In this document: piece after piece, positions 5,744-25,876 of the stretch
Layout: each line of letters starts with the position of its first letter
Position numbering within the stretch: the first letter of the stretch is position 1
DNA from: an uncultured Mycoplasmatota bacterium
GTDB lineage: Bacteria > Bacillota_I > Bacilli_A > RF39 > UBA660
Assembly (NCBI GenBank): GCA_948466395.1
Contig: CAOKAG010000001.1
Coordinates: 14,584-78,583, forward strand
DNA length: 64,000 nucleotides
Direction: 5' to 3'
Notes under the pieces: model-generated
The model's input: the letters and a program-made list of their open reading frames with translations, nothing else
The model's database searches: none
What the model was told of the DNA's origin: nothing
Made by a program: the position numbers and the translations under genes

Positions 5744-6187
5744 CTATTTATTATTATCCTCTTTTTTAATGTATTTTTCTATTTTTTTGACATAAGCTTC
5801 TTTAAGGTTTTCTCCAAATTTCGGTTTAAATTGGTCTAAGTACTCTAAAATTAAATCCGCATAGTCTTCTATTTTTTCATCTTTTACTATCTTTGCTAAA
5901 TATTTATTAATTCCTTTTTGGCTATTTATTCTTTCTATATAAAAAGCTAAAAGATTTGTAGTACCTATTTTTTCTTTAGCGGTGGAAACAATGGAATAAA
6001 GTTTTTCTCTCGAAACAGAATAGCGTGGTTTAAAACCTCCAGCTCTGGAAAACATAATTAAAGCACAACCTATAAAAAGTTTATCTGTTCCATTTTGAGG
6101 AAACGTTTTGTGAGTAAATTCAATTAAACTCTCTTTATTTCCTTTTTCAAAGTCATCATAAAGTTCCATTAAAATTCGATTTATCAA
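5744..6187 (-). CDS. Hypothetical protein (147 aa)
   Basis: ORF with coding-like composition; last gene of the co-oriented lepB...Qng1 run; no family recognised. Confidence 0.45.
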   Translation of the reverse strand: MINRILMELYDDFEKGNKESLIEFTHKTFPQNGTDKLFIGCALIMFSRAGGFKPRYSVSREKLYSIVSTAKEKIGTTNLLAFYIERINSQKGINKYLAKIVKDEKIEDYADLILEYLDQFKPKFGENLKEAYVKKIEKYIKKEDNNK

Positions 6188-6208
6188 AAATCAACACCTC
6201 ATTTTTGG

Positions 6209-6901
6209 TTATTTTAATTTTTTATAGAAATCCTCTCGCCAATTGCTTCTTTTTCCATTTTTTCTTATGTAATTCAATGAACCATAGCAAGTCTTTGGAT
6301 CACTTAAAAATTCTATTTTTTCTATTTCATCTAATTCAATACGCCAGACACATCCTTGTAAAATATCGCTTTCTTCTGTGATACACAAATCAAAACTTTT
6401 TTTAATTTCATTACAAATATTTAAATAATCTTTATCCATCCGATGGGATTCATATTTATCTGGTCTAGATAGAGCTTTTAATTCTTCTTTTGTAATGTTT
6501 AGTTTTTGTAATTTTTTATCAAATCTTTCTTTATCTAAAAGATTTTTAGGAATGTACATATTATTTAATAAAAAAGAATATCTTCTAAAATCAGTAATGA
6601 AAATTTCTTTTTTAGGTTTATTAAATGTTATTTTCACATCAAAACCTTTCACAGGTGTACCTTTATGTTTAGGAGGACAAATTCCGTTGTAACACTTTAC
6701 CCAACACCAAATGGGATAGTGAATTTGATGGGGATTATTAAGAACTTTATTCATTTTTTCTATAACCCAAGAATAGGTTGCTTCACTCTTTTTCAAGTCT
6801 ATAAAGTTTGAATTCGCTTCTAGATAGCCTTTGTTTAATAAATCTTTTAAAGCGTTTAAAGATTGAAATGTTATGAGTTTCATTTGCTTGTTTCCTTTCA
6901 C
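6209..6901 (-). CDS. DUF3841-like hypothetical protein
   Basis: Conserved aromatic motif HYPIWCW near residue 60 recalls the DUF3841 family. This is from memory, not a search. Confidence 0.45.
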   Translation of the reverse strand: MKGNKQMKLITFQSLNALKDLLNKGYLEANSNFIDLKKSEATYSWVIEKMNKVLNNPHQIHYPIWCWVKCYNGICPPKHKGTPVKGFDVKITFNKPKKEIFITDFRRYSFLLNNMYIPKNLLDKERFDKKLQKLNITKEELKALSRPDKYESHRMDKDYLNICNEIKKSFDLCITEESDILQGCVWRIELDEIEKIEFLSDPKTCYGSLNYIRKNGKRSNWREDFYKKLK

Positions 6902-12665: not shown

Positions 12666-14555
12666 TTAAAATTTTTTTAATAGAACACGACCAATTCCAT
12701 CCTCATTATTGGATAAAGTTACTTCATTAGCGTGTTCTTTTACCACATCTAAGGCGTTTCCCATGGCAACACTATAAACTGGACTATCCATTAAAGGTAA
12801 ATCGTTTAAACCATCCCCAAAAAAAATCATTTCTTCCATTTCTATTTCTAATTTTTTTCCTAATTCTTCTAAAACCGTTCGTTTATTAATGCCTTTTGGA
12901 TTAATGACAAGCCAAGAATGTGTATTCGTTGCTTGCATAACAAAAACATTTAATTTAGGATACTCTTTTTTTAATTCTTCCTCTACTTTAAAAACATTCT
13001 CCTCATCTTTAAAAAAGACATTCATTCTGGCTATCTCTTCCGTTACTTCTTCTACTGACTCGACGTCTATAAGAAAAGAAAGAGGACTATTTTTCTTATT
13101 TTTATATATGTAATAATTGTTTGCTCCAACAAAATCAATTTGCGTGACCAAATTTTCATATTTTTTGATGAGATACGTCGTTTCTTCTTTTGTAATTTTT
13201 CCTATCATTTTTATTTTCTCATTTTTATTATCATAAAGCGTTGCACCATTATTTAATATTAAATAATCAAACAGCTCTTTTGGCACAACGTCTAGGGCAC
13301 TTTGTAACGTTCTTGCAGTCACGCCAATAATAAAAACGCCCTTTTCTTTACATTTTAATAAAGCTTTTTTCGTTTCTAGTGTGACTTCATGATTATCGTT
13401 TAATAAAGTATCATCTAAATCCAAAGCTATCAATTTGTATTTTTTCTTACAATCGTAAAGAATGAAAGGAACTAAGATTTCATCTTCTGTTATCCCAGCA
13501 TGCATTGATTTTAAATCTACGGAATTTTCATTATATCGAAAATATTTATTATGAGTCGCAATGGCTAAAAAATCTCCTAAAGACTCATCAAATCTTAGAT
13601 GTTCTTTTCCTCTTCCAAATAAGCTTTCTTTTTTCACTTGCTCTTTACTATATAAAAGAAAATCTTCTTTAAAATATTGATGAAACAAAGTTTTAAATTT
13701 TTCTTGTTCTCCATCTTTAATAAAGAAGTTACAAGCTCGCCCTTCTATGGAAAGGTCTCGTTTTAATAATGAAAATAAGTCTTTGTATTCACTTAAAGTA
13801 ATGGCTTCACTGTTAATGTGACCATGATCAGCAACGACAATGACTAAACTTTCTTCTAATTCTCGACATAATTTTTCGGTACTTTTATTAATCGTTTGTA
13901 ACCATTCTTTTATTTTAGGGGAATCTGTCCCTACTTCATGCAAAGTGTGGTCTGGTTCATCGTAATAAGCATAAATAAATTTCTTGCCTTCTTCTTTGGA
14001 ATAATTTAAAATCCTTTCGTTCATTTCTTCTAAACTGTGAAACGCCTTTTCATGAAAAGGCATAAGTTGATAGGCTTTGTGTTTTTGATTAATTAATTCA
14101 ATGATAGAAGAATAGGGATAGTACTTTTGGGCTAGGGTTACCTCTCCCCCAACTTTAATTTCCGTGTCTTTTAAAGTATTTAAAAACAGGGTGACAATTT
14201 TATCTTCTTCTTTAAAATATAAGTCCCAGCCAAGCCATCCATGTTCACTTGGATTTAAACCAGATAAGACACTTGTTGTTGCGGCGGTCGTTGTTGCGGG
14301 AAAGACAGAGTGAATGTCTTTTATTTTTTGTTTTCTTAGAAAATGATTGGGCTCTAAATGTTTTGATAATAAATTTGACCCCATCCCATCATAAAGAATA
14401 AGAATTATATTTTTATAATCTTGACCCGATAACACGTCTTCTAATTCTTTTAAAGGTTCATGATAGGTTTTACAATCAAAATATTTTAAAATGGCATTTG
14501 CAACATTTGTTAATCCATCCTCATAATTAGGAAATAAAGTTTTCATACATAACAA
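12666..14555 (-). CDS. Fusion protein with an N-terminal alkaline-phosphatase-superfamily phosphodiesterase/nucleotide-pyrophosphatase domain and a C-terminal Cof-type HAD-IIB phosphatase domain
   Basis: ILILYDGMGSN...FPATTTAATTSVLSGLNPSEHGW (NPP-like Thr nucleophile region); C-terminal half has KLIALDLDDTLL...GINK...GDGLNDLPLM HAD motifs. Confidence 0.7.
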   Translation of the reverse strand: MLCMKTLFPNYEDGLTNVANAILKYFDCKTYHEPLKELEDVLSGQDYKNIILILYDGMGSNLLSKHLEPNHFLRKQKIKDIHSVFPATTTAATTSVLSGLNPSEHGWLGWDLYFKEEDKIVTLFLNTLKDTEIKVGGEVTLAQKYYPYSSIIELINQKHKAYQLMPFHEKAFHSLEEMNERILNYSKEEGKKFIYAYYDEPDHTLHEVGTDSPKIKEWLQTINKSTEKLCRELEESLVIVVADHGHINSEAITLSEYKDLFSLLKRDLSIEGRACNFFIKDGEQEKFKTLFHQYFKEDFLLYSKEQVKKESLFGRGKEHLRFDESLGDFLAIATHNKYFRYNENSVDLKSMHAGITEDEILVPFILYDCKKKYKLIALDLDDTLLNDNHEVTLETKKALLKCKEKGVFIIGVTARTLQSALDVVPKELFDYLILNNGATLYDNKNEKIKMIGKITKEETTYLIKKYENLVTQIDFVGANNYYIYKNKKNSPLSFLIDVESVEEVTEEIARMNVFFKDEENVFKVEEELKKEYPKLNVFVMQATNTHSWLVINPKGINKRTVLEELGKKLEIEMEEMIFFGDGLNDLPLMDSPVYSVAMGNALDVVKEHANEVTLSNNEDGIGRVLLKKF

Positions 14556-17528: not shown

Positions 17529-18029
17529 TTAATCTTTTAAAGCTTTTCTTAACTCATTTATAAATTCATTTTGTGTTAATTTACTTAAGTCTTTATCAAA
17601 AGCCAAAGGTGTAGATGTTATTTCTTTTCCCATCCAAGATTCTTTTTGATAATTTTCTAGTTCTTCTGTAGTATTAAATTTCACTTCAACACGATTTAAT
17701 CCACTAAATTTTTCAAGATACTTTTTTATTGATACTCGTTTGTCTTTTAAATAAAGATAACTGTCTCTGATAATTTTTTGATTGGCTTGACTCTTTAATG
17801 CTTCAAACTCTTTATTTGAAATCTTTACTTTTTCAATCCATTCATTTTGATCGTTCAGTACTTCTTTTTCTAATATGTTTTCTTTTTTTTGAACTCTTAA
17901 GTTTTCATTAATATAATATCTTTCATAACGAATCGATGGGCTTAGCTCTAATTCATCTAAACTTTTTACAATAAATCTTTTGGTTAATCTCATAAGTTTT
18001 CTCCTATTTTTTATTTGTACCTTTTCCAT
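17529..18029 (-). CDS. CYTH-domain (CyaB/thiamine-triphosphatase-like) protein
   Basis: N-terminal R-LTKRFIV (EIERKFLV-like) and alternating acidic/basic beta-strand pattern; size fits. Confidence 0.45.
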   Translation of the reverse strand: MEKVQIKNRRKLMRLTKRFIVKSLDELELSPSIRYERYYINENLRVQKKENILEKEVLNDQNEWIEKVKISNKEFEALKSQANQKIIRDSYLYLKDKRVSIKKYLEKFSGLNRVEVKFNTTEELENYQKESWMGKEITSTPLAFDKDLSKLTQNEFINELRKALKD

Positions 18030-19456
18030 AATTCTTCTTTTGTTCTTTGGAAAGATTCTATAATTATTAATTTTTCTAATAAATCTGCATCATTAATAGA
18101 TATTAAAAATTCTTTTACTTTAGATATAGCAATCTGAACAAGCGCTGTTATAGTTAAGTTTTGATTAAAAATTTTTTCCATAGCTAAAGGTAGTTTTATA
18201 CTATACTGATACCTTAAGTATTCTTCATTACTTATTGCTTTTGATTCACATATTTCTTTTTTCAAAACTTCTATAGAACTTTCTAAATCAAATTTATATT
18301 CTTCTTTAGTCATGTTTAGTTTTTTCTCTATTTCTTTTTTAATTTTTTTTTGTTTATCAGGAGAAAGATTATAATAATAATTCTCCACTTTTTCTTTATA
18401 TTCTAAATAAGATTTTTCGAATTCTTTAGGATTTTCTAATATCTCATTTAATTTTTGAATTTCTTTAAGATATCTATATTTTCTTTCTTCGTTTTCTTTT
18501 TTTCTTTCATTTATAAATATATTCAATTTTTCTTCAGAAAACTCCTGATGACATAGATTAATAGAGTCTTTTATGTCTTTGTCTGTGTATTTAGAATTAT
18601 TTTTAGCAAGAATAACAGTAATTAAAGCCATAAGTTCTATAAAAAATTCTTGTTGTTTCTCTGGTATTTTATCAAAAAATAAGTCACTTTTTTTCCACGT
18701 ATCTCTTACATTTTTTGGTAAAGTCAACATTAAAAGTATATAAAGTTGATAATAGAGATTGTATGCTATTTGAATATTTTCATAGTCAATAAAACTATTT
18801 CTTTCATTCCAATCATCTATTAAATTTCCACTATATATAGCATCTCCTTCGGTTAGCATTAGCCTTATTTCAAAAGCAAAAGGGTATTTACTAGAATAAG
18901 TAAAACCGAAAAATTGCTGCTTAGAATGTTGTAATTCGTGTTGTAAATTTTGTACATCTCCTTCTATGTTTAATAATTCAATACCACAATTAATTCTTAA
19001 AGGTTTATTCAGAATTTCTTTTGTACATACTCCTGCAGAATACAAAGTATATTCTCCTTCTGGGTCTCTTACATATTTTTCTTCTTCCTTTTTTAAGCGT
19101 AAGTTCTTAGCACTAATTTGACTATGTTCTACTTTAATAATTTGATTATAAAAAAAATTTGTTGGGTCACAGAGTATTTCATCTAATGTATAAACTTTTA
19201 AATAGTCAAGGTTTCTTATACACTCCAAATTGTTTTCAATAAATTCTTCTACTAGTGTATGCTCTAAAATGTCTTTATTCGGATTATAAAATTCTATAAT
19301 TATAAGAAGCCAATTTATTAATAAATCTTGAATCCTTTGATTATACTTTTTATCATTTATTATACTTTTTAATTCTTTGTAATATTTAACAAACATTTGT
19401 GTTTTTTCTGAATTTATTTCTTTTATACGTTTGTCTATTAACTCAGAGTATGTCAT
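18011..19456 (-). CDS. Hypothetical 481-aa protein with a HEXXH motif (possible Zn-metallopeptidase-like)
   Basis: LQHELQHSKQ motif; overlaps both neighbours. Confidence 0.4.
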   Translation of the reverse strand: MTYSELIDKRIKEINSEKTQMFVKYYKELKSIINDKKYNQRIQDLLINWLLIIIEFYNPNKDILEHTLVEEFIENNLECIRNLDYLKVYTLDEILCDPTNFFYNQIIKVEHSQISAKNLRLKKEEEKYVRDPEGEYTLYSAGVCTKEILNKPLRINCGIELLNIEGDVQNLQHELQHSKQQFFGFTYSSKYPFAFEIRLMLTEGDAIYSGNLIDDWNERNSFIDYENIQIAYNLYYQLYILLMLTLPKNVRDTWKKSDLFFDKIPEKQQEFFIELMALITVILAKNNSKYTDKDIKDSINLCHQEFSEEKLNIFINERKKENEERKYRYLKEIQKLNEILENPKEFEKSYLEYKEKVENYYYNLSPDKQKKIKKEIEKKLNMTKEEYKFDLESSIEVLKKEICESKAISNEEYLRYQYSIKLPLAMEKIFNQNLTITALVQIAISKVKEFLISINDADLLEKLIIIESFQRTKEELWKRYK

Positions 19457-19649
19457 TTTTTAAGTCCTCCATCATTATTTGATATAATTTTGGTTCTTGT
19501 TCTTTAATTGTTGTGATCTTTGCTAGTTTTGCTTCTTTTATGTTTTTAGGATTATTTAGTGTTAAACTATTCCACTCATCTATAAATTTATAAAACCATA
19601 AAGGATTAGTACAATATCTACGATATTTTAATTTCAAAGTTTCTTCCAT
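19443..19649 (-). CDS. Small hypothetical protein (68 aa)
   Basis: ORF overlapping the start of the 481-aa gene. Confidence 0.3.
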   Translation of the reverse strand: MEETLKLKYRRYCTNPLWFYKFIDEWNSLTLNNPKNIKEAKLAKITTIKEQEPKLYQIMMEDLKNDIL

Positions 19650-19715
19650 TATTCATCACCTTTTATCTTATCTAATTATCTAAAGAAAAAGACTACTTTT
19701 CAGCAGCTTTAACCT

Positions 19716-20012
19716 TTACGATTTGTCAGAATCTGTATTGTCTGATTCTTCGATTGCTAAATCTTTAAATAAATCAAAGAATAATTTAGCCACTTCTTTA
19801 TATTCTTCATTATTGGTGACTTTTTCAACTGCCTCTTCGCCATCTTTAATAATTCTTCTAACAATGGTTTGGGTATTTTCTATAATGTCTTCGTTTTCAT
19901 CAACTTCAATTAAATACAAATACGTAGAATCTTTATATTCTACCATATTAGCAATGGTGTATTCTTTATTGTTTTCTAATGTTAGGATATCGTAAAGTTC
20001 CATTGGTTTCAT
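19716..20012 (-). CDS. DUF1292-family small acidic protein
   Basis: Short acidic protein with a MELYDILTLENNKEYTIANMVEYKDSTYLYLIEVDENED-type pattern typical of DUF1292 (YrzB-like). Confidence 0.55.
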   Translation of the reverse strand: MKPMELYDILTLENNKEYTIANMVEYKDSTYLYLIEVDENEDIIENTQTIVRRIIKDGEEAVEKVTNNEEYKEVAKLFFDLFKDLAIEESDNTDSDKS

Positions 20013-21913
20013 GCAGCTCTTCCTCCTCTTTCTTGTTTAATTTCTACTGCTCCATTACTTTCTAAGGCCTTCTTTTTATCTTCAAAATCTGGAGCACTAG
20101 AATCGAGTTCAAATATCATTCCATTGTAATCGTAAGTTATTATGCCACTAGACTCTTTTCCTTCATTGAATCTTTGAGTGATTTTTTCAACAACTCGATC
20201 TATTTCTGTTGGCTCTTTTAATGGAGGGGTGGGTTCTTTTTTTAGTCCTAAATTCTTATTGATTTCATAAGATGAAACAAAGGAACTTAATCCTGCAAAT
20301 ACAGTCATACCAATAGAAGCGGCGATATAGCTGGACTGCTCTTTGATTTTTTCTAAAAGATGATTTTTATTTTTACCTTTTCGTATCTTTAAGATCTTAA
20401 AATGTTGTTTATTTTTTCCTGGTAGTGCACTTAAAACTTGTTTAACATTTAATATCATTTTCTTTAGAAAATTAGAAGCATTTTCTATAATTAATGGAAG
20501 GGACAAGTTTATTTTATTTTCTTCTTTTCTTTTTTCATAGTCTTCTAATTTTAATAGAATATCTGTTAACACTTGTAATTTTTCTTCATCGGTGTATTTA
20601 GAGCTGACACTAAAACCATTAACATTACTCATAATGTTTGTGTAGAAAACGCTCATTTGTTCTGGAAGACCACTCGTTTTAAAGATGGCTTTCATGTTTG
20701 CAAAGATAACAAATTTTTCAGCCATACATAATTCATAAAGAGCTTTTTTTAATTTTGCAATTTCTTTTAATACTCTTTCATCTTCTTTTTTGTATTCAAA
20801 AAAACGTATTTTATTAAAAATGGCTCTTTTTCTTTCTGGTATTTTTTGATATTTTTCTATATCTTGAATCACCATTAAGTCGCTCTTTTCATCTAAATAA
20901 GGTGTCAATTTTTTTAAGTCTGCGTATTTACTTATTAATTCTTCAAATTTTTCTAGTCTACTTTTTAAAATAGTTAATTCTTTCCCATCAATACTTGTTA
21001 CGGTCATGACACGATCGGGATGATTAATCATTGGTAACGCTTCAAATCCTAATTTATACAAAGCTATAATAATACTGGCATACTGACTAGCACAAACATC
21101 GGTATTGCTTCTTTCATTTTCCTGTTTGATTAAGTCTTTTTCTTCTGCTTCGTATTTTTTATAAAGATTGGTTAATAAACTAATGTATTGACGATATCTC
21201 CAAACGTGTTTCGTGGAAATTTCTTTCGTAACGCCACAATATGTGACAAATGATTTTTTTCCTTTTACTTTTTCAATGTTATTAATAATCAATTCGATGT
21301 ATTTACATTTATCCGTAATTAAAGGAAGTTTATTATAAAATTCTTGATCTATGGTGTAATAATTTTTCTTTTTATCACTAGATGTAGTTACTTCCATGGT
21401 GTTGTATTCCGTAGAAGATTTTTCAATGATATAAGCTTCTGATTCAATGACTTCTTTTCTTAACTTTTTGTAATGGTTTAATAAAGATTGATATTGTTCT
21501 TTATAGGAATCGGGCATGTTTCCTTTCATTCTTCTTAATATGGCAATTTGTCTTTCAATGTTGCGATATTTAATAATGTTGCTGGCTTGTTCCATCTCTT
21601 TTTTAATTTCTCGTCCTTCAACAAATCCTACAACATCATGATAATTTTCCAAACTAGACATGATTTCATTCATTAAATTTAAAAAATCTATTTCTTGAGC
21701 TAAAAAAGTATCGTATTCTTTTCTTGTACTTTCGTCTCTTGCTTCTAAATAAAGTTTTTTGTAATCTTGAATTAATTTTTTTAATTCTTGATAAAGTGTA
21801 TTAAAATCGTTTAAGTCTCCAACTTGTCGCTCACCATTAATGAAATGGGTCTCAAATTCATGAGTGGTTATTTGGATTCTAGCGACTTCTGGATTGTGTA
21901 CGCGTAAATTCAT
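20009..21913 (-). CDS. Hypothetical 634-aa protein, coiled-coil rich, with one predicted TM near the C-terminus
   Basis: Long ORF with a coding composition; hydrophobic SSYIAASIGMTVFAGLSSFV segment; no family recognised. Confidence 0.45.
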   Translation of the reverse strand: MNLRVHNPEVARIQITTHEFETHFINGERQVGDLNDFNTLYQELKKLIQDYKKLYLEARDESTRKEYDTFLAQEIDFLNLMNEIMSSLENYHDVVGFVEGREIKKEMEQASNIIKYRNIERQIAILRRMKGNMPDSYKEQYQSLLNHYKKLRKEVIESEAYIIEKSSTEYNTMEVTTSSDKKKNYYTIDQEFYNKLPLITDKCKYIELIINNIEKVKGKKSFVTYCGVTKEISTKHVWRYRQYISLLTNLYKKYEAEEKDLIKQENERSNTDVCASQYASIIIALYKLGFEALPMINHPDRVMTVTSIDGKELTILKSRLEKFEELISKYADLKKLTPYLDEKSDLMVIQDIEKYQKIPERKRAIFNKIRFFEYKKEDERVLKEIAKLKKALYELCMAEKFVIFANMKAIFKTSGLPEQMSVFYTNIMSNVNGFSVSSKYTDEEKLQVLTDILLKLEDYEKRKEENKINLSLPLIIENASNFLKKMILNVKQVLSALPGKNKQHFKILKIRKGKNKNHLLEKIKEQSSYIAASIGMTVFAGLSSFVSSYEINKNLGLKKEPTPPLKEPTEIDRVVEKITQRFNEGKESSGIITYDYNGMIFELDSSAPDFEDKKKALESNGAVEIKQERGGRAA

Positions 21914-22021
21914 ATCTTATGCACTTCCTCTATTCTTACTAAGATTATACACTATTATTTTATATTTAGCAAATTGATTTCAATAAAAAAAGAATTGATT
22001 TTCAACTCTTTACAAAGTGGA

Positions 22022-24130
22022 TTATATACTTAAATTGATTTCTAAAATTTCGCTGGGACTTAAAGGCGCTCCTGTTACTAAATTGGTGCTTACGACCTTG
22101 CCATAACCATTTAATACATAAGGAATTCCTAAAAGGTTACAAAAGGTAACGATTTCATTGGTACTCCATCCTGTAACATCCGGTAAAGTATAAGAAATAG
22201 AATTGGTGACTAAAAATACTTTGGAGCCATACAATACATGTTGATTTTTTAGGGGATATTGATTGATTATATAGTTGCCTTCTCCTAAAATAATCACTTG
22301 AAATCCTTGCTGTTTTAGTTTTTCAGTGGTGGTAAGGACGAATGAGGAGATGTAATCACTTAAAGCCATGATTTTGGTTTCATCTACATCGTTTTCTTTT
22401 TCTACTAAATTGGTACTTTTAGCGACTTCTCCCACAACGTTATTGACAATTTTAGCAATATCATTGGTTTCTCCTACCAGTTGTTTGACTGCTATGTATA
22501 CAACGTATTCTGGGTCTTCATAAGGAAAAAGACCAGCAAAACTTTTGATGTAATCGTAATCACCTTTTAAATATCCCCCACCCTTAGGATTAGCAATTTG
22601 GGCGGTTCCAGTTTTACCAATTAAAGTCACGTTATTTGGAGCAAATTTTTTACTGGATTCAAAGCCATCATAAACGACTTTATACATTAAGTCTTTAATT
22701 TTATTTATGGTTTCACTACTTGCCACCTTAGCGATTTCGGTTCGATTGTTTTCATAAGTCGTTTCCCCTTTTTCATTAATGATTTTAGAAACGATATAGG
22801 GTTTTACCATTACGCCATCATTAGCAATCGAAGTAAGAGCTTGAAGCATTTGTATAGGTGTTACAGTGATTCTTCCTTGTCCAAAGGCCGCGGTTGCTAA
22901 TTCACTTTCATAAATAAAGGTATTGGTTCCTTCTACTTCGCCTGGGAGATTGATTCCCGTTTTTTTACCAAATCCTAAGGTATCGTAAAAGGCTTTTAGT
23001 TTGTTGCTTCCCAGTTCTAAAGCAAGATGCGTTGCGGCAACGTTACTCGAATAAGCAAAACCTGTATCAAAATCAATTTCGCCCCACCCTTTATTGTTGA
23101 AGTCATTGATTTTTGTACCATCTTTTAAGATGGTAGAGCCTGATAAATACTTTTTACTTCCGTCATAGATGCCTTCTTCTATGGCATCCATAAAAGAAAA
23201 TATTTTCATAACGCTTCCTGGTTCGTATTGGAAAGAGACCAAAGGATTTAAATAACTTTCTAAATCTTCACGAGTATTTAAATCAAAATTAGGGTTATTG
23301 GCGCTTCCTAAAATAGCACCCGTTTTGGCGTTCATGACGGTAAGGGTTGCCCATGAAAATTGGTAGTTGTCTTCTAACTGATTAATTGCATTTTCTAATA
23401 TAAGTTGAATGTCTTGATCAAGAGTCAAATAAATATCGGAGCCACTTGTACTCTCTTCTCCAATAGGCGTCGAAGTAGGCATTTGATAACCATAAGCATC
23501 TTTTTGGTATTCGGTCCAGCCATTCTCCCCTTTCAAGGTATCGTTATAATATGATTCTAGACCCATTTTACCATCAATTTCGCCATAATCATCGGTGAGG
23601 GCGTACCCTAAAATATAAGAGGCATAATTACCATAAGGATAGTATCTTTTGGTGCTTCTTACAAAATCAATACCTGGTAAGTCTAGAGCAATGATTTCGT
23701 TTTTTTTATTTTCAGAGATGCCTAGTTTTAAATTAATTTGGTATAGATTTTCTCGGGATAATCTTTCTAATAAAGTGCTTTCTTCCATTTCTAAAACCGG
23801 TGCTAATGATTTCGCGGTGTGTTCTTTATCCACGACATGATTTGGATGACTAACGTCTTTGGTTCTCGTTTCTGATAAGTAAGCAATCACAGTGTAAGAA
23901 TTCGCATCAACGGCTAGTTCGTTGCCATTATTATCGAATATGGTTCCTCGACTGGCATATAAGGTTTTATGCTCGGTGTTTCGATTATCAGCAAAAGCTT
24001 TTAAATCGATTCCATCGACATTATCTGATACAGCCACATAAATCAGTTTAGCCATTATTAAGACAAATAAAAAAGAGATGCCTAGCATGGTTAATTTTAG
24101 ATTATAATGGACCATATTTCTTCTCTTCAT
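22022..24130 (-). CDS. pbpB: Penicillin-binding protein 2B (class B transpeptidase FtsI/SpoVD-like) with C-terminal PASTA domains
   Basis: SVMK (SxxK), SSN and KTGT motifs; dcw position after ftsL. Confidence 0.9.
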   Translation of the reverse strand: MKRRNMVHYNLKLTMLGISFLFVLIMAKLIYVAVSDNVDGIDLKAFADNRNTEHKTLYASRGTIFDNNGNELAVDANSYTVIAYLSETRTKDVSHPNHVVDKEHTAKSLAPVLEMEESTLLERLSRENLYQINLKLGISENKKNEIIALDLPGIDFVRSTKRYYPYGNYASYILGYALTDDYGEIDGKMGLESYYNDTLKGENGWTEYQKDAYGYQMPTSTPIGEESTSGSDIYLTLDQDIQLILENAINQLEDNYQFSWATLTVMNAKTGAILGSANNPNFDLNTREDLESYLNPLVSFQYEPGSVMKIFSFMDAIEEGIYDGSKKYLSGSTILKDGTKINDFNNKGWGEIDFDTGFAYSSNVAATHLALELGSNKLKAFYDTLGFGKKTGINLPGEVEGTNTFIYESELATAAFGQGRITVTPIQMLQALTSIANDGVMVKPYIVSKIINEKGETTYENNRTEIAKVASSETINKIKDLMYKVVYDGFESSKKFAPNNVTLIGKTGTAQIANPKGGGYLKGDYDYIKSFAGLFPYEDPEYVVYIAVKQLVGETNDIAKIVNNVVGEVAKSTNLVEKENDVDETKIMALSDYISSFVLTTTEKLKQQGFQVIILGEGNYIINQYPLKNQHVLYGSKVFLVTNSISYTLPDVTGWSTNEIVTFCNLLGIPYVLNGYGKVVSTNLVTGAPLSPSEILEINLSI

Positions 24131-24146: not shown

Positions 24147-24446
24147 TTAATCGTTGATGACTTTAATGTTATCATTATTATAGGATAAACCAATATTTTT
24201 TGCAACTTCTTGAATTTTATCAAGAGAGGCTAATTCGTTGATTTGCATACTCAACCCTTCATTTAAATTTGTTTGCTTATCAATTTTAGATTTCAATTGT
24301 TCTACTTCAATATTTGATTCAGATAAAAGTGCTTTGATAAAAACATTAGAAATGGGTACTGCTATTACTAATAGGATTAATAAAAAATATAGTATTTTTT
24401 CGCCTCTAATAATGGTAATTTTTTTTAAATTCTTATTTTTAGTCAT
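24147..24446 (-). CDS. ftsL: Cell division protein FtsL
   Basis: Small bitopic protein with a coiled coil, placed between rsmH and the PBP gene. Confidence 0.7.
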   Translation of the reverse strand: MTKNKNLKKITIIRGEKILYFLLILLVIAVPISNVFIKALLSESNIEVEQLKSKIDKQTNLNEGLSMQINELASLDKIQEVAKNIGLSYNNDNIKVIND

Positions 24447-24449
24447 TAT

Positions 24450-25373
24450 TCAATTCCTTTCTATTATTCTTAATTTGCTACTTTTACTACGACTGTTTTC
24501 TTCTAATTCTTTACTGCTTGGTAAAATAGGCTTTTTATTTACTAAGTGAATCAAAGGTTTGTAATCGTCTGGAATTTGGGGTAATCCTTTTACTAATTCA
24601 TCGATTTCACTGTATTTTTTAAAGATGTTTTTTACAATGCGATCTTCTAATGAATGAAAGGTAATAACGGCAAGACGCCCCCCTTTTTTGAGTAATGAAA
24701 TGGCAATCGGTAAAACCATTTCTAAACTGTTTAATTCATCGTTTACTTCGATTCGTATGGCTTGAAATATTTTTCTTTCAGGGTGTTTGTTGTAAAAATA
24801 TTTAGCCCCCACTGCTGATTCGATCACTGTTACTAATTCTTTGGTGGTATCAATTGTTTTTTCCGTTCTTTTTTTTATGATTTCTTTAGCAATGGCTTTG
24901 CTTCTTTCTTCTTCACCATAAGTATAAAAGATATGGGTTAATTTGCTTTCTTCGTATTCGTTTACCACATGCCAAGCGCTTAAAGGTTTTGAGGTATCCA
25001 TTCGCATGTCTAGCTTCCCTTCATGCATGAATGAAAACCCTCTTCTATCGGTATCGATTTGAGGACTGGAAACCCCTAAATCAAAAAGGATTCCATCAAC
25101 TTGTTCTATTTTTTCTTCTTCTAATTTTTCTTTTAAGTCTTTGAAATTGCTATGAAAGATTTTATAGTTTGTCCCTACTTTTTGTAAATTTTGATTGGCG
25201 ATTTTAATGGCTTCTTCATCGGCATCAAAGGCATAAAGTTTTCCTTTAGGAATTCTTTTTAAGATTTCTTTACTATGACCAGCCAATCCTAAGGTTCCAT
25301 CAACATAAATGCCCTCTTCTTTTAAATTTAATCCCTCAATGGCTTCGTTTAAGAGTACAGAATAATGCTTCAT
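24450..25373 (-). CDS. rsmH: 16S rRNA (cytosine1402-N4)-methyltransferase RsmH/MraW
   Basis: Full-length match to RsmH (DGTLGLAGHS, FDLGVSSPQ). Confidence 0.95.
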   Translation of the reverse strand: MKHYSVLLNEAIEGLNLKEEGIYVDGTLGLAGHSKEILKRIPKGKLYAFDADEEAIKIANQNLQKVGTNYKIFHSNFKDLKEKLEEEKIEQVDGILFDLGVSSPQIDTDRRGFSFMHEGKLDMRMDTSKPLSAWHVVNEYEESKLTHIFYTYGEEERSKAIAKEIIKKRTEKTIDTTKELVTVIESAVGAKYFYNKHPERKIFQAIRIEVNDELNSLEMVLPIAISLLKKGGRLAVITFHSLEDRIVKNIFKKYSEIDELVKGLPQIPDDYKPLIHLVNKKPILPSSKELEENSRSKSSKLRIIERN

Positions 25374-25804
25374 AAACTCTCCTCCATAAATAAATTTTCA
25401 GCAATTTCAGAAAGTTTATCTCTCGTTTCTTCCATCAATTTGTTCCATTCCTCTAAATCCCATATTTCAATACGGTCGTTAGCGCCGATTACAACACAAT
25501 CTTTTGTTAAACCAGCATAGCTAACTAGTGGGGAGGTAAGCGACGTTCTTCCTTGACGATCGAACTCGCATTCAGTAGCACCAGAAAAGAAGGTTCTCAT
25601 AAATGTTCGGGCGGTTGATTTTGTAAAAGGTAGAGTTTTAAGTTTGTTTTCGAGTTTTCCCCATTCCGCAATTGAGTAAACATACAAACATTTTTCAAAA
25701 CCCCGTGCCACAATAAATTTGTCACCAAGCATTGTGCGAAATTTACTAGGAAGCACGAGCCTTGATTTATCATCAATGGTATGATGATATTCGCCCATAA
25801 ACAT
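25370..25804 (-). CDS. mraZ: Transcriptional regulator MraZ. The start is set at the ATG giving MFMGEYHHTIDDKSRL; the ORF-track GTG start at 25816 is probably too long.
   Basis: MFMGEYHHT...RL..P N-terminus is canonical MraZ, with two DXXXR-type repeats. Confidence 0.9.
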   Translation of the reverse strand: MFMGEYHHTIDDKSRLVLPSKFRTMLGDKFIVARGFEKCLYVYSIAEWGKLENKLKTLPFTKSTARTFMRTFFSGATECEFDRQGRTSLTSPLVSYAGLTKDCVVIGANDRIEIWDLEEWNKLMEETRDKLSEIAENLFMEESL

Positions 25805-25810
25805 TTTATC

Positions 25811-25876
25811 ACCCACTTTCTTCCACTATGTACCACTGTCTACCACTATATTACACAATCTAGTTAAAAAAGTAAA
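25811..25876 (-). promoter_or_regulatory. mraZ promoter (-35 TTTACT, 17 bp, -10 TAATAT) followed by 3 to 4 direct GTGG[G/T] repeats with 10-bp periodicity, the MraZ autoregulatory boxes
   Basis: Minus-strand sequence reads AGTGGTAgacAGTGGTAcatAGTGG...GTGGGT just upstream of the mraZ start. Confidence 0.55.

Follow-up and report, generated by a model that had tools for sequence, protein, structure and literature searches.

A five-gene chain behind pbp2B in an uncultured gut Bacilli genome is probably a mosaic of three units

Layout of the chain and its described relatives

The classical dcw cluster of Firmicutes runs mraZ-rsmH-ftsL-pbpB-murE-mraY and onward. In a 64,000-nucleotide (nt) stretch of DNA from an uncultured Mycoplasmatota bacterium—the whole of which we call the window—the first four genes stand in the same order, but the cluster ends at pbp2B and is followed, as in related genomes, by two lineage-specific genes and no mur genes. 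What is the chain of five co-oriented open reading frames (ORFs) that begins there, between positions 17529 and 21913 on the minus strand? Three described families offer the closest comparisons. DUF1292 (PF06949; YrzB-like) is similar in size, acidic composition, and sequence pattern to the 98-amino acid (aa) product of the second gene in the chain; it normally lies in a Firmicute ireB-ruvX-DUF1292 operon (seen in locus L003), whereas the window gene instead follows a 634-aa gene in the dcw context. The gluzincins (clan MA; HExxH with a Glu farther on; e.g., M30 lugdulysin, PDB 7bb8) share with the 481-aa product of the fourth gene an invariant HExxH helix placed after a beta-sheet; the Glu of an invariant Glu-Gly on the next helix of the 481-aa protein is a candidate for their downstream Glu. 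Unlike known gluzincins, however, the 481-aa protein gives no sequence match and nothing by Foldseek, is predicted to be cytoplasmic, and brings ~170 extra C-terminal residues in helical hairpins, ~80 N-terminal helical residues, and an obligate 68-aa partner gene. The last gene encodes a 154-aa protein comparable to NeuTTM (NE1496, PDB 2fbl/3typ), an inorganic triphosphatase that is likewise a single domain of ~150 aa with an eight-stranded tunnel. Martinez et al. (2015, PMC4641920) distinguish two sites in such triphosphate tunnel (TTM) proteins. At site 1, the substrate-metal complex is bound by the first glutamate of beta8, a residue invariant in characterized members; site 2, where the attacking water is activated, consists of the two glutamates of the ExExK motif and the second glutamate of beta8. 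The window protein has two motifs in common with NeuTTM: VEV.F, the stretch of beta8 that surrounds the site-1 Glu, and W.G.E.T, which comes after it. It differs in reading R-x-T-x-R for ExExK, in having Lys, Thr, or Ser at the second beta8 Glu, and in lacking the three-Glu patch, at an overall identity of 16-17%.

Where the dcw-head operon tails off, the five ORFs probably make up a mosaic of three evolutionary and functional units and not one system. The units are a dcw-linked pair encoding the 634- and 98-aa proteins; an inserted, strain-specific pair encoding the 68- and 481-aa proteins; and an independent CYTH-fold gene that is adjacent to the others only in this genus. Comparative evidence carries this reading. 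The closest relatives are metagenome-assembled genomes (MAGs) of uncultured mouse-gut Bacilli, and the congeners compared were L001, L002, L017, and L018. Three of these (L001, L002, and L017) have the order mraZ-rsmH-ftsL-pbp2B-635aa-99aa-154aa, then the same convergent SDF transporter, with no 68-aa or 481-aa genes; the segment carrying those two genes is missing at the site in all four congeners, and the outgroups L015 and L016 also lack the pair there. Linkage to mraZ-rsmH-ftsL-pbp2B across species is present for the 634- and 98-aa genes and not for the 68-aa, 481-aa, or CYTH-like genes. The initial annotation had taken the whole chain for a single translationally coupled module in which a CYTH enzyme, a metalloprotease, and a membrane protein work together in a division-gene setting. 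Neither part of that proposal is supported by the comparison: four congeners lack the middle pair at this site, and the adjacency on which the functional coupling was built is genus- or strain-specific.

Do the overlapping reading frames themselves argue for one module? All five ORFs are confirmed on the minus strand, with the 634-aa gene at 20009-21913, the 98-aa gene at 19716-20012, the 68-aa gene at 19443-19649, and the 481-aa gene at 18011-19456. Two of the three overlaps on which the chain had been founded are genuine, each with a GGAGGA ribosome-binding site: that between the 634- and 98-aa genes (20009-20012; 4 nt, ATGA) and that between the 68- and 481-aa genes (19443-19456; 14 nt). 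The third, at 18011-18029, is an artifact of choosing the longest ORF for the last gene (17529-18029, 166 aa), and we rejected that start. The corrected gene, 17529-17993 (154 aa), begins 17 nt past the 481-aa stop; we take it as the true gene because nearly all of the best 120 of 582 homologues are 150-165 aa long and start with MRLT and because an AGGAG lies 8 nt upstream of the ATG at 17993. The 12 extra codons of the 166-aa version fall within the strain-specific insertion. At least seven other adjacent same-strand gene pairs overlap in the window, which has a GC content of ~29.5% and carries nearly all its genes on the minus strand; short overlaps are therefore common here and constitute weak evidence for a functional module. 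A promoter and terminator scan of the region returned no more sites than shuffled sequence did, and Rfam and tRNA scans of the window gave no matches.

The description of all five genes as uncharacterized stands. None of the five proteins had a significant match in Pfam, NCBIfam, PHROGs, or PADLOC, and none proved to be an ordinary protein of known function. A search of PADLOC, PHROGs, and Pfam for known defense, toxin, or antitoxin families, which covered the five proteins and, for Pfam, the individual members of four of their families, also yielded nothing significant. A defense or phage role is not supported, with no PADLOC, PHROG, phage, or plasmid match. We rejected a defense island (no known defense genes), a prophage (no phage matches), and a sporulation role (no evidence for one, and no known sporulation family matched).

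Two gene pairs after pbp2B

How conserved is the pair that directly follows pbp2B? The order pbp2B, large protein, ~98-aa gene recurs in all six relatives examined for it (L001, L002, L015, L016, L017, and L018). The 634-aa protein is 85-86% identical to its counterparts in L001, L002, L017, and L018, 45% in L016, and 30% in L015, where it reaches 820 aa. In all six, the stop of the large gene and the start of the ~98-aa gene overlap or abut, and in the loci examined the ~98-aa gene always comes after a 634-aa homologue; the genes downstream of it vary between lineages. The smaller protein is the better conserved, at 57-92% identity to counterparts in relatives vs. 30-86% for the larger one. 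These comparisons show a conserved, translationally coupled pair that forms a lineage-specific extension of the dcw cluster in uncultured low-GC gut Bacilli.

The 634-aa protein has only ten detectable homologues, and sequence and profile searches with its family gave no Pfam, NCBIfam, or PDB match (PDB matches were at chance level only); a PADLOC scan returned one chance-level match (E value of 0.024). A candidate transmembrane (TM) segment at residues ~528-550 (nt 20264-20332) is free of charged residues, and the ~85 residues C-terminal of it carry the conserved motif Y..YNG...D....K.A...NGA. On our model, the protein would have a large N-terminal cytoplasmic domain, one TM anchor near the C terminus, and ~85 residues exposed outside. 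The 98-aa protein is acidic (pI 4.2). The initial annotation had called it a DUF1292 protein, and DUF1292-like it is: it aligns to a canonical DUF1292 protein of a related genome with an hhalign probability of 71% (E value of 3.6e-5), and its L016 orthologue has a weak Pfam DUF1292 match, yet its own score against PF06949 (23.2 bits) falls just below the cutoff of 24. This subthreshold score and the different genomic context lead us to regard it as a divergent DUF1292 paralogue. We found no functional information in the DUF1292 literature. The 98-aa protein could be the cytoplasmic partner of the 634-aa protein, and the two together may assist septal or envelope synthesis as an accessory specific to this lineage, a role that we propose solely because the genes are linked to pbp2B.

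Upstream of the pair, also on the minus strand, lies the dcw head: mraZ (25370-25816), rsmH (24450-25373), an ftsL-like gene (24147-24446), and pbp2B (22022-24130). We named these four genes from their counterparts in locus L001, which are 95-97% identical and labeled by Pfam as MraZ, Methyltransf_5, DivIC (a weak match), and PBP_dimer/Transpeptidase/PASTA, respectively. As the initial annotation had observed, pbp2B is not followed by murE or mraY; this is so in the window and in the relatives examined. Promoter-like hexamers occur on the minus strand in the 108 nt that separate pbp2B from the 634-aa gene (TTGCTA-17-TATAAT at 21944-21983, with a TG two bases upstream of the -10 element), a consensus match that suggests a possible internal promoter.

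The second pair sits on a segment with sharp boundaries. By blastn, the window aligns to L001 from 25931 to 19733 (89.7% identity) and from 18012 to 11001 (96.3% identity); between these breakpoints, 1,720 bp (18013-19732) with the 68- and 481-aa genes stand in place of an 88-bp spacer in L001, in which inspection by eye only revealed no obvious remnant of the cassette. The GC content of the segment is 23.8%, compared with 29.5% for the window and 24.9% for the CYTH-like gene; because the segment and the CYTH-like gene are so similar in this respect, base composition says little for a foreign origin. A different filler occupies the same site in L018 (790 bp, L018:5234-6000, with 116- and 61-aa ORFs without a Pfam match), and the spacer after the DUF1292-like gene thus seems to attract varying cargo as a hot spot. 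Since the neighborhood after the 634-aa/98-aa pair differs among relatives, we regard this operon end as a variable junction.

In L018, the SDF transporter is also separated from the CYTH-like gene by ~830 extra bp that are absent from the window. At L018:6597-7251, a 51-nt tandem repeat (2.1 copies) is followed by frameshifted ORFs, whose conceptually repaired product has a weak match to Pfam ToxN_toxin (E value of 0.034; 14.8 bits against a cutoff of 25). Judged from these sequence features, a type III toxin-antitoxin locus may have decayed here.

How widespread is the cassette? The 481-aa protein was searched against a library of 5.8 billion sequences (90% clusters), where only its own cluster was found, and exhaustively with HMMER against 1.84 billion representatives of 50%-identity clusters, where 27 proteins were found that are 27-37% identical to it and mostly 340-480 aa long. 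No relative above 37% identity exists in either library; the orthologues of the flanking genes, unlike the 481-aa protein, occur on 52-87 contigs. An upstream 68-aa gene is present in six of the six readable loci of the family (the window, P0132, P0133, P0135, P0137, and P0141). These partner genes encode exactly 68 aa, are 38-51% identical to one another, and overlap the 481-type gene by 14-17 nt. The cassettes lie in unrelated contexts—after comEB/DUF3795, after an XRE helix-turn-helix gene, after rplQ, and after ftsZ—and the pair travels alone, contrary to the proposed link with its present neighbors. Searches for mobile or viral relatives were negative: the 481-aa protein had no tblastn match in the phage and plasmid collections, and a 68-aa profile found no relatives in Joint Genome Institute (JGI) metagenomes and IMG/VR. 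A PDB sequence and profile search with the 68-aa family remained at chance level. Taken with the congener comparison, these results show that the two genes form a cassette of their own, carried by a 1.72-kb segment without a counterpart at the site in congeners. The pair is accessory by distribution, in both its presence or absence among close relatives and its variable location. One copy of the cassette stands directly after ftsZ (L090:154-2905); this copy and the dcw-adjacent one may be a coincidence or may reflect a preference for the ends of division-gene operons.

The HEXXH motif assigned to the 481-aa protein is real: it reads HELQH at residues 173-177 (nt 18926-18940), and this zincin motif is conserved in the family, with H173, E174, and H177 invariant in 17 members (HExxH kept). 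Also invariant are G142, P192, E203, and Y239. E203 (nt 18848-18850), which is followed by G204, lies 26 residues past the second histidine. A confident AlphaFold2 (AF2) model (pLDDT of 87.8, pTM of 0.81) has N-terminal helices, a five-strand sheet (121-162), the HExxH helix (167-180), the E203 helix (194-211), and helical hairpins (308-480), so that the HExxH and E203 helices come consecutively after the sheet. No Pfam, NCBIfam, or PDB match beyond chance was obtained by sequence or profile, which leaves the protein in no curated family, and Foldseek of the model against PDB returned nothing below an E value of 0.3. Having neither a signal peptide nor a TM helix, the protein is predicted to be cytoplasmic. 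We propose that it is a cytoplasmic gluzincin-type zinc metallopeptidase fused to long helical hairpins, in which the zinc ligands would be His173, His177, and Glu203, with Glu174 as the putative catalytic base. The cotranslated 68-aa protein would bind it as a regulator, inhibitor, or adaptor, and a role of the cassette in conflict, toxin-antitoxin-like or defense-like, is possible.

A CYTH-fold protein that kept site 1 and lost site 2

Is the last gene a CYTH gene, as had been assigned? Pfam CYTH (PF01928) gave no match at E ≤ 1 for the window protein, 20 family members, or 2 sister-clade proteins, and NCBIfam gave no CYTH match for the window protein. The assignment nevertheless holds from predicted structure and a profile match to NeuTTM. 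The AF2 model of the 154-aa protein (pLDDT of 95) has eight strands in the eight-stranded beta-tunnel fold, and its top Foldseek match is NeuTTM (3typ/2fbl; E value of 3e-9, TM score of 0.77-0.83), followed by further CYTH structures (2een, 2gfg, 3v85, 6yp4, and 3tvl). A profile that includes the sister clade (A8) matches 2fbl over positions 3-130 to 5-141 (E value of 0.0032, 20.6 bits); without that clade, the E value is only 0.36.

The initial annotation had pointed to the catalytic ExExK motif and the acidic residues as a check on this assignment; the motif and the acidic patch are gone. ExExK of NeuTTM (E-I-E-R-K) aligns to R2-L-T4-K-R6, and VEVEF aligns to V-E103-V-K105-F within the window motif R101-V-E103-V-K105. 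Among 187 sequences, 178 have T at position 4, 179 have R at position 6, and 170 have K, T, or S at position 105; the site-1 glutamate at position 103 is kept in 186. The acidic-patch positions 2, 4, and 105 are R/K, T, and K/T/S in the clade of the window protein, which has no three-Glu patch; its invariant basic residues are R6, R25, R33, K37, K43, K55, R76, K90, and R101. A sister clade (L080-L086, with matches at ~6001-6465 in each), ~40% identical and drawn from Clostridia/Clostridium MAGs, keeps KEIERKY and RAEVEF. Because the canonical motifs are kept there, the loss of the acidic patch in the window's clade is derived.

Uncultured gut Bacilli of 71 species carry the gene in their genomes (MAGs labeled Bacilli, ‘Tenericutes’, or Clostridium sp. 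CAG:451), and the family holds ~60% identity across at least 66 species, with many invariant polar residues. It lies within 6 kb of pbp2B in 2 of the 71 species, only the two congeners. Among 66 loci surveyed for neighbors, the commonest upstream neighbor is present in 6; it looks ASCH-like, judged by its own sequence and by the Pfam label of the gene in this place in L005/L006. No downstream neighbor occurs more than 4 times. The gene therefore has no conserved neighbor, and its supposed link to pbp2B is not supported. These data show an independent, strongly conserved CYTH/triphosphate tunnel protein in which site 1 is kept and site 2 is lost. We infer that it still binds a triphosphate-type ligand but would not hydrolyze it by the canonical two-metal mechanism.

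Two further observations concern the surroundings of the insertion. Compared with L001, nucleotide identity is unequal on the two sides (96.3% at 18012-11001, 89.7% at 25931-19733), and the 634-aa and CYTH-like proteins have diverged much faster (84-86% aa identity) than their neighbors (95-98%); junction recombination or relaxed or positive selection are possible causes. Farther along the minus strand, at 12666-14555, a 629-aa ORF joins a domain of the phosphodiesterase/AlkP type to a HAD hydrolase of the Cof type, as judged from Pfam labels on the syntenic L001 gene (96% DNA identity across the flank); in L002, its counterpart is split into 135- and 465-aa ORFs.

Alternative readings and significance

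Several points weigh against resolving the chain into three units with the properties proposed here. The five co-oriented genes are separated by short gaps with no predicted terminator and may well be cotranscribed in this strain, with incidental coregulation possible. The direction of the indel, a gain here or a loss elsewhere, was assigned by parsimony from six loci. The C-terminal TM helix that the initial annotation had given the 634-aa protein is marginal by hydropathy in that protein (Kyte-Doolittle value of 1.51 over 19 residues), although it is clear at the equivalent place in the distant homologue P0131 (2.05). Finally, Vtc4p lacks an acidic-patch Glu and yet is catalytic (PMC4641920), so that loss of the patch is no proof of inactivity. 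Could the five genes, then, form one coupled division, sporulation, signaling, or defense module, with a nucleotide signal from the CYTH protein controlling the protease and the membrane protein? Co-orientation, the two genuine overlaps, the lack of a predicted terminator, and the uncharacterized state of all five genes fit such a module. However, the five-gene arrangement is found only in this strain (3 contigs), its middle pair is missing at the site in congeners, its CYTH-like gene is near pbp2B in just those 2 of 71 species, its third overlap is a product of ORF calling, its CYTH protein has lost ExExK and the acidic patch, and PADLOC and PHROG matches are wanting. The comparative data have already largely refuted a single module, which we consider highly improbable.

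Within the three-unit reading, the nature of the cassette and of the CYTH-like protein can each be construed differently. The 68-aa/481-aa pair could be a selfish or conflict cassette, toxin-antitoxin or abortive-infection-like, whose 68-aa protein neutralizes or licenses a zincin effector and for which the dcw-end site is a landing pad. Its presence/absence polymorphism among congeners, its rare and fast-evolving family (27 representatives at 27-37% identity), its two always-overlapping genes with the small one first, its variable contexts, and the other cargo in the same region of L018, including the 51-nt repeat and the frameshifted ToxN-like ORF (E value of 0.034), all speak for this. We nevertheless think it unlikely, given that there is no PADLOC, Pfam toxin/antitoxin, phage, plasmid, or IMG/VR match, that the flanks hold no integrase, repeats, or defense genes, that several contexts are plain housekeeping operons (rplQ, ftsZ, and comEB), and that 481 aa is an atypical size for a classic toxin. 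That the pair is instead ancestral to the lineage, fast evolving, and relocating, with its absence in congeners due to deletion or relocation and not to recent insertion here, strikes us as less likely again. In its favor, the cassette proteins are 37% and 47% identical to those of L009, not far below the housekeeping genes compared between the same two genomes (48-61%), and the cassette lies within housekeeping operons elsewhere; against it, no database homologue exceeds 37% identity despite well-sampled congeners, both outgroups (L015 and L016) likewise lack the pair at the site, and the L001 spacer has no remnant obvious by eye. As for the CYTH-like protein, it is doubtful, with a chance greater than that of either cassette alternative, that it remains an enzyme—a one-metal triphosphatase, a Vtc4p/CyaB-like polymerase or cyclase, or an RNA 5′-end enzyme—using its substituted basic residues. 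Strong purifying selection (~60% identity across at least 66 species, with many invariant polar residues), the retained site-1 Glu, and the precedent of Vtc4p favor activity, whereas 170-178 of 187 sequences have other residues in place of the three patch glutamates, basic ones at two positions that would repel a second metal, the sister clade shows the patch Glu to be ancestral, and mutations of acidic-patch residues impair catalysis in the many TTMs cited (PMC4641920).

A bolder combination is unlikely as a whole. It would have the 68-aa/481-aa pair as an undescribed mobile system of a new toxin-antitoxin or abortive-infection type, in which a small protein gates a cytoplasmic gluzincin with a coiled-coil sensor and which came to rest where the dcw-head operon ends, in a hot spot for cargo, and, separately, the 634-aa/DUF1292-like pair as an unrecognized divisome component of cell-walled relatives of Mollicutes.

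These results serve mainly as a correction: in an AT-rich genome of the Firmicute type, a functional module does not follow from closely spaced genes with overlapping codons. Comparative synteny resolves the chain into three units with three uncharacterized families, each a modest lead, and none of the three bears on a long-standing open question. The 68-aa/481-aa pair is a rare small-protein/zincin cassette with accessory behavior. The CYTH clade, with its natural loss of the acidic patch beside an intact sister clade, offers a ready pair for work on tunnel proteins that are unable to activate water. The 634-aa/98-aa pair is a lineage-specific pair tied to pbp2B in uncultured gut Bacilli, a group whose division machinery is unstudied.

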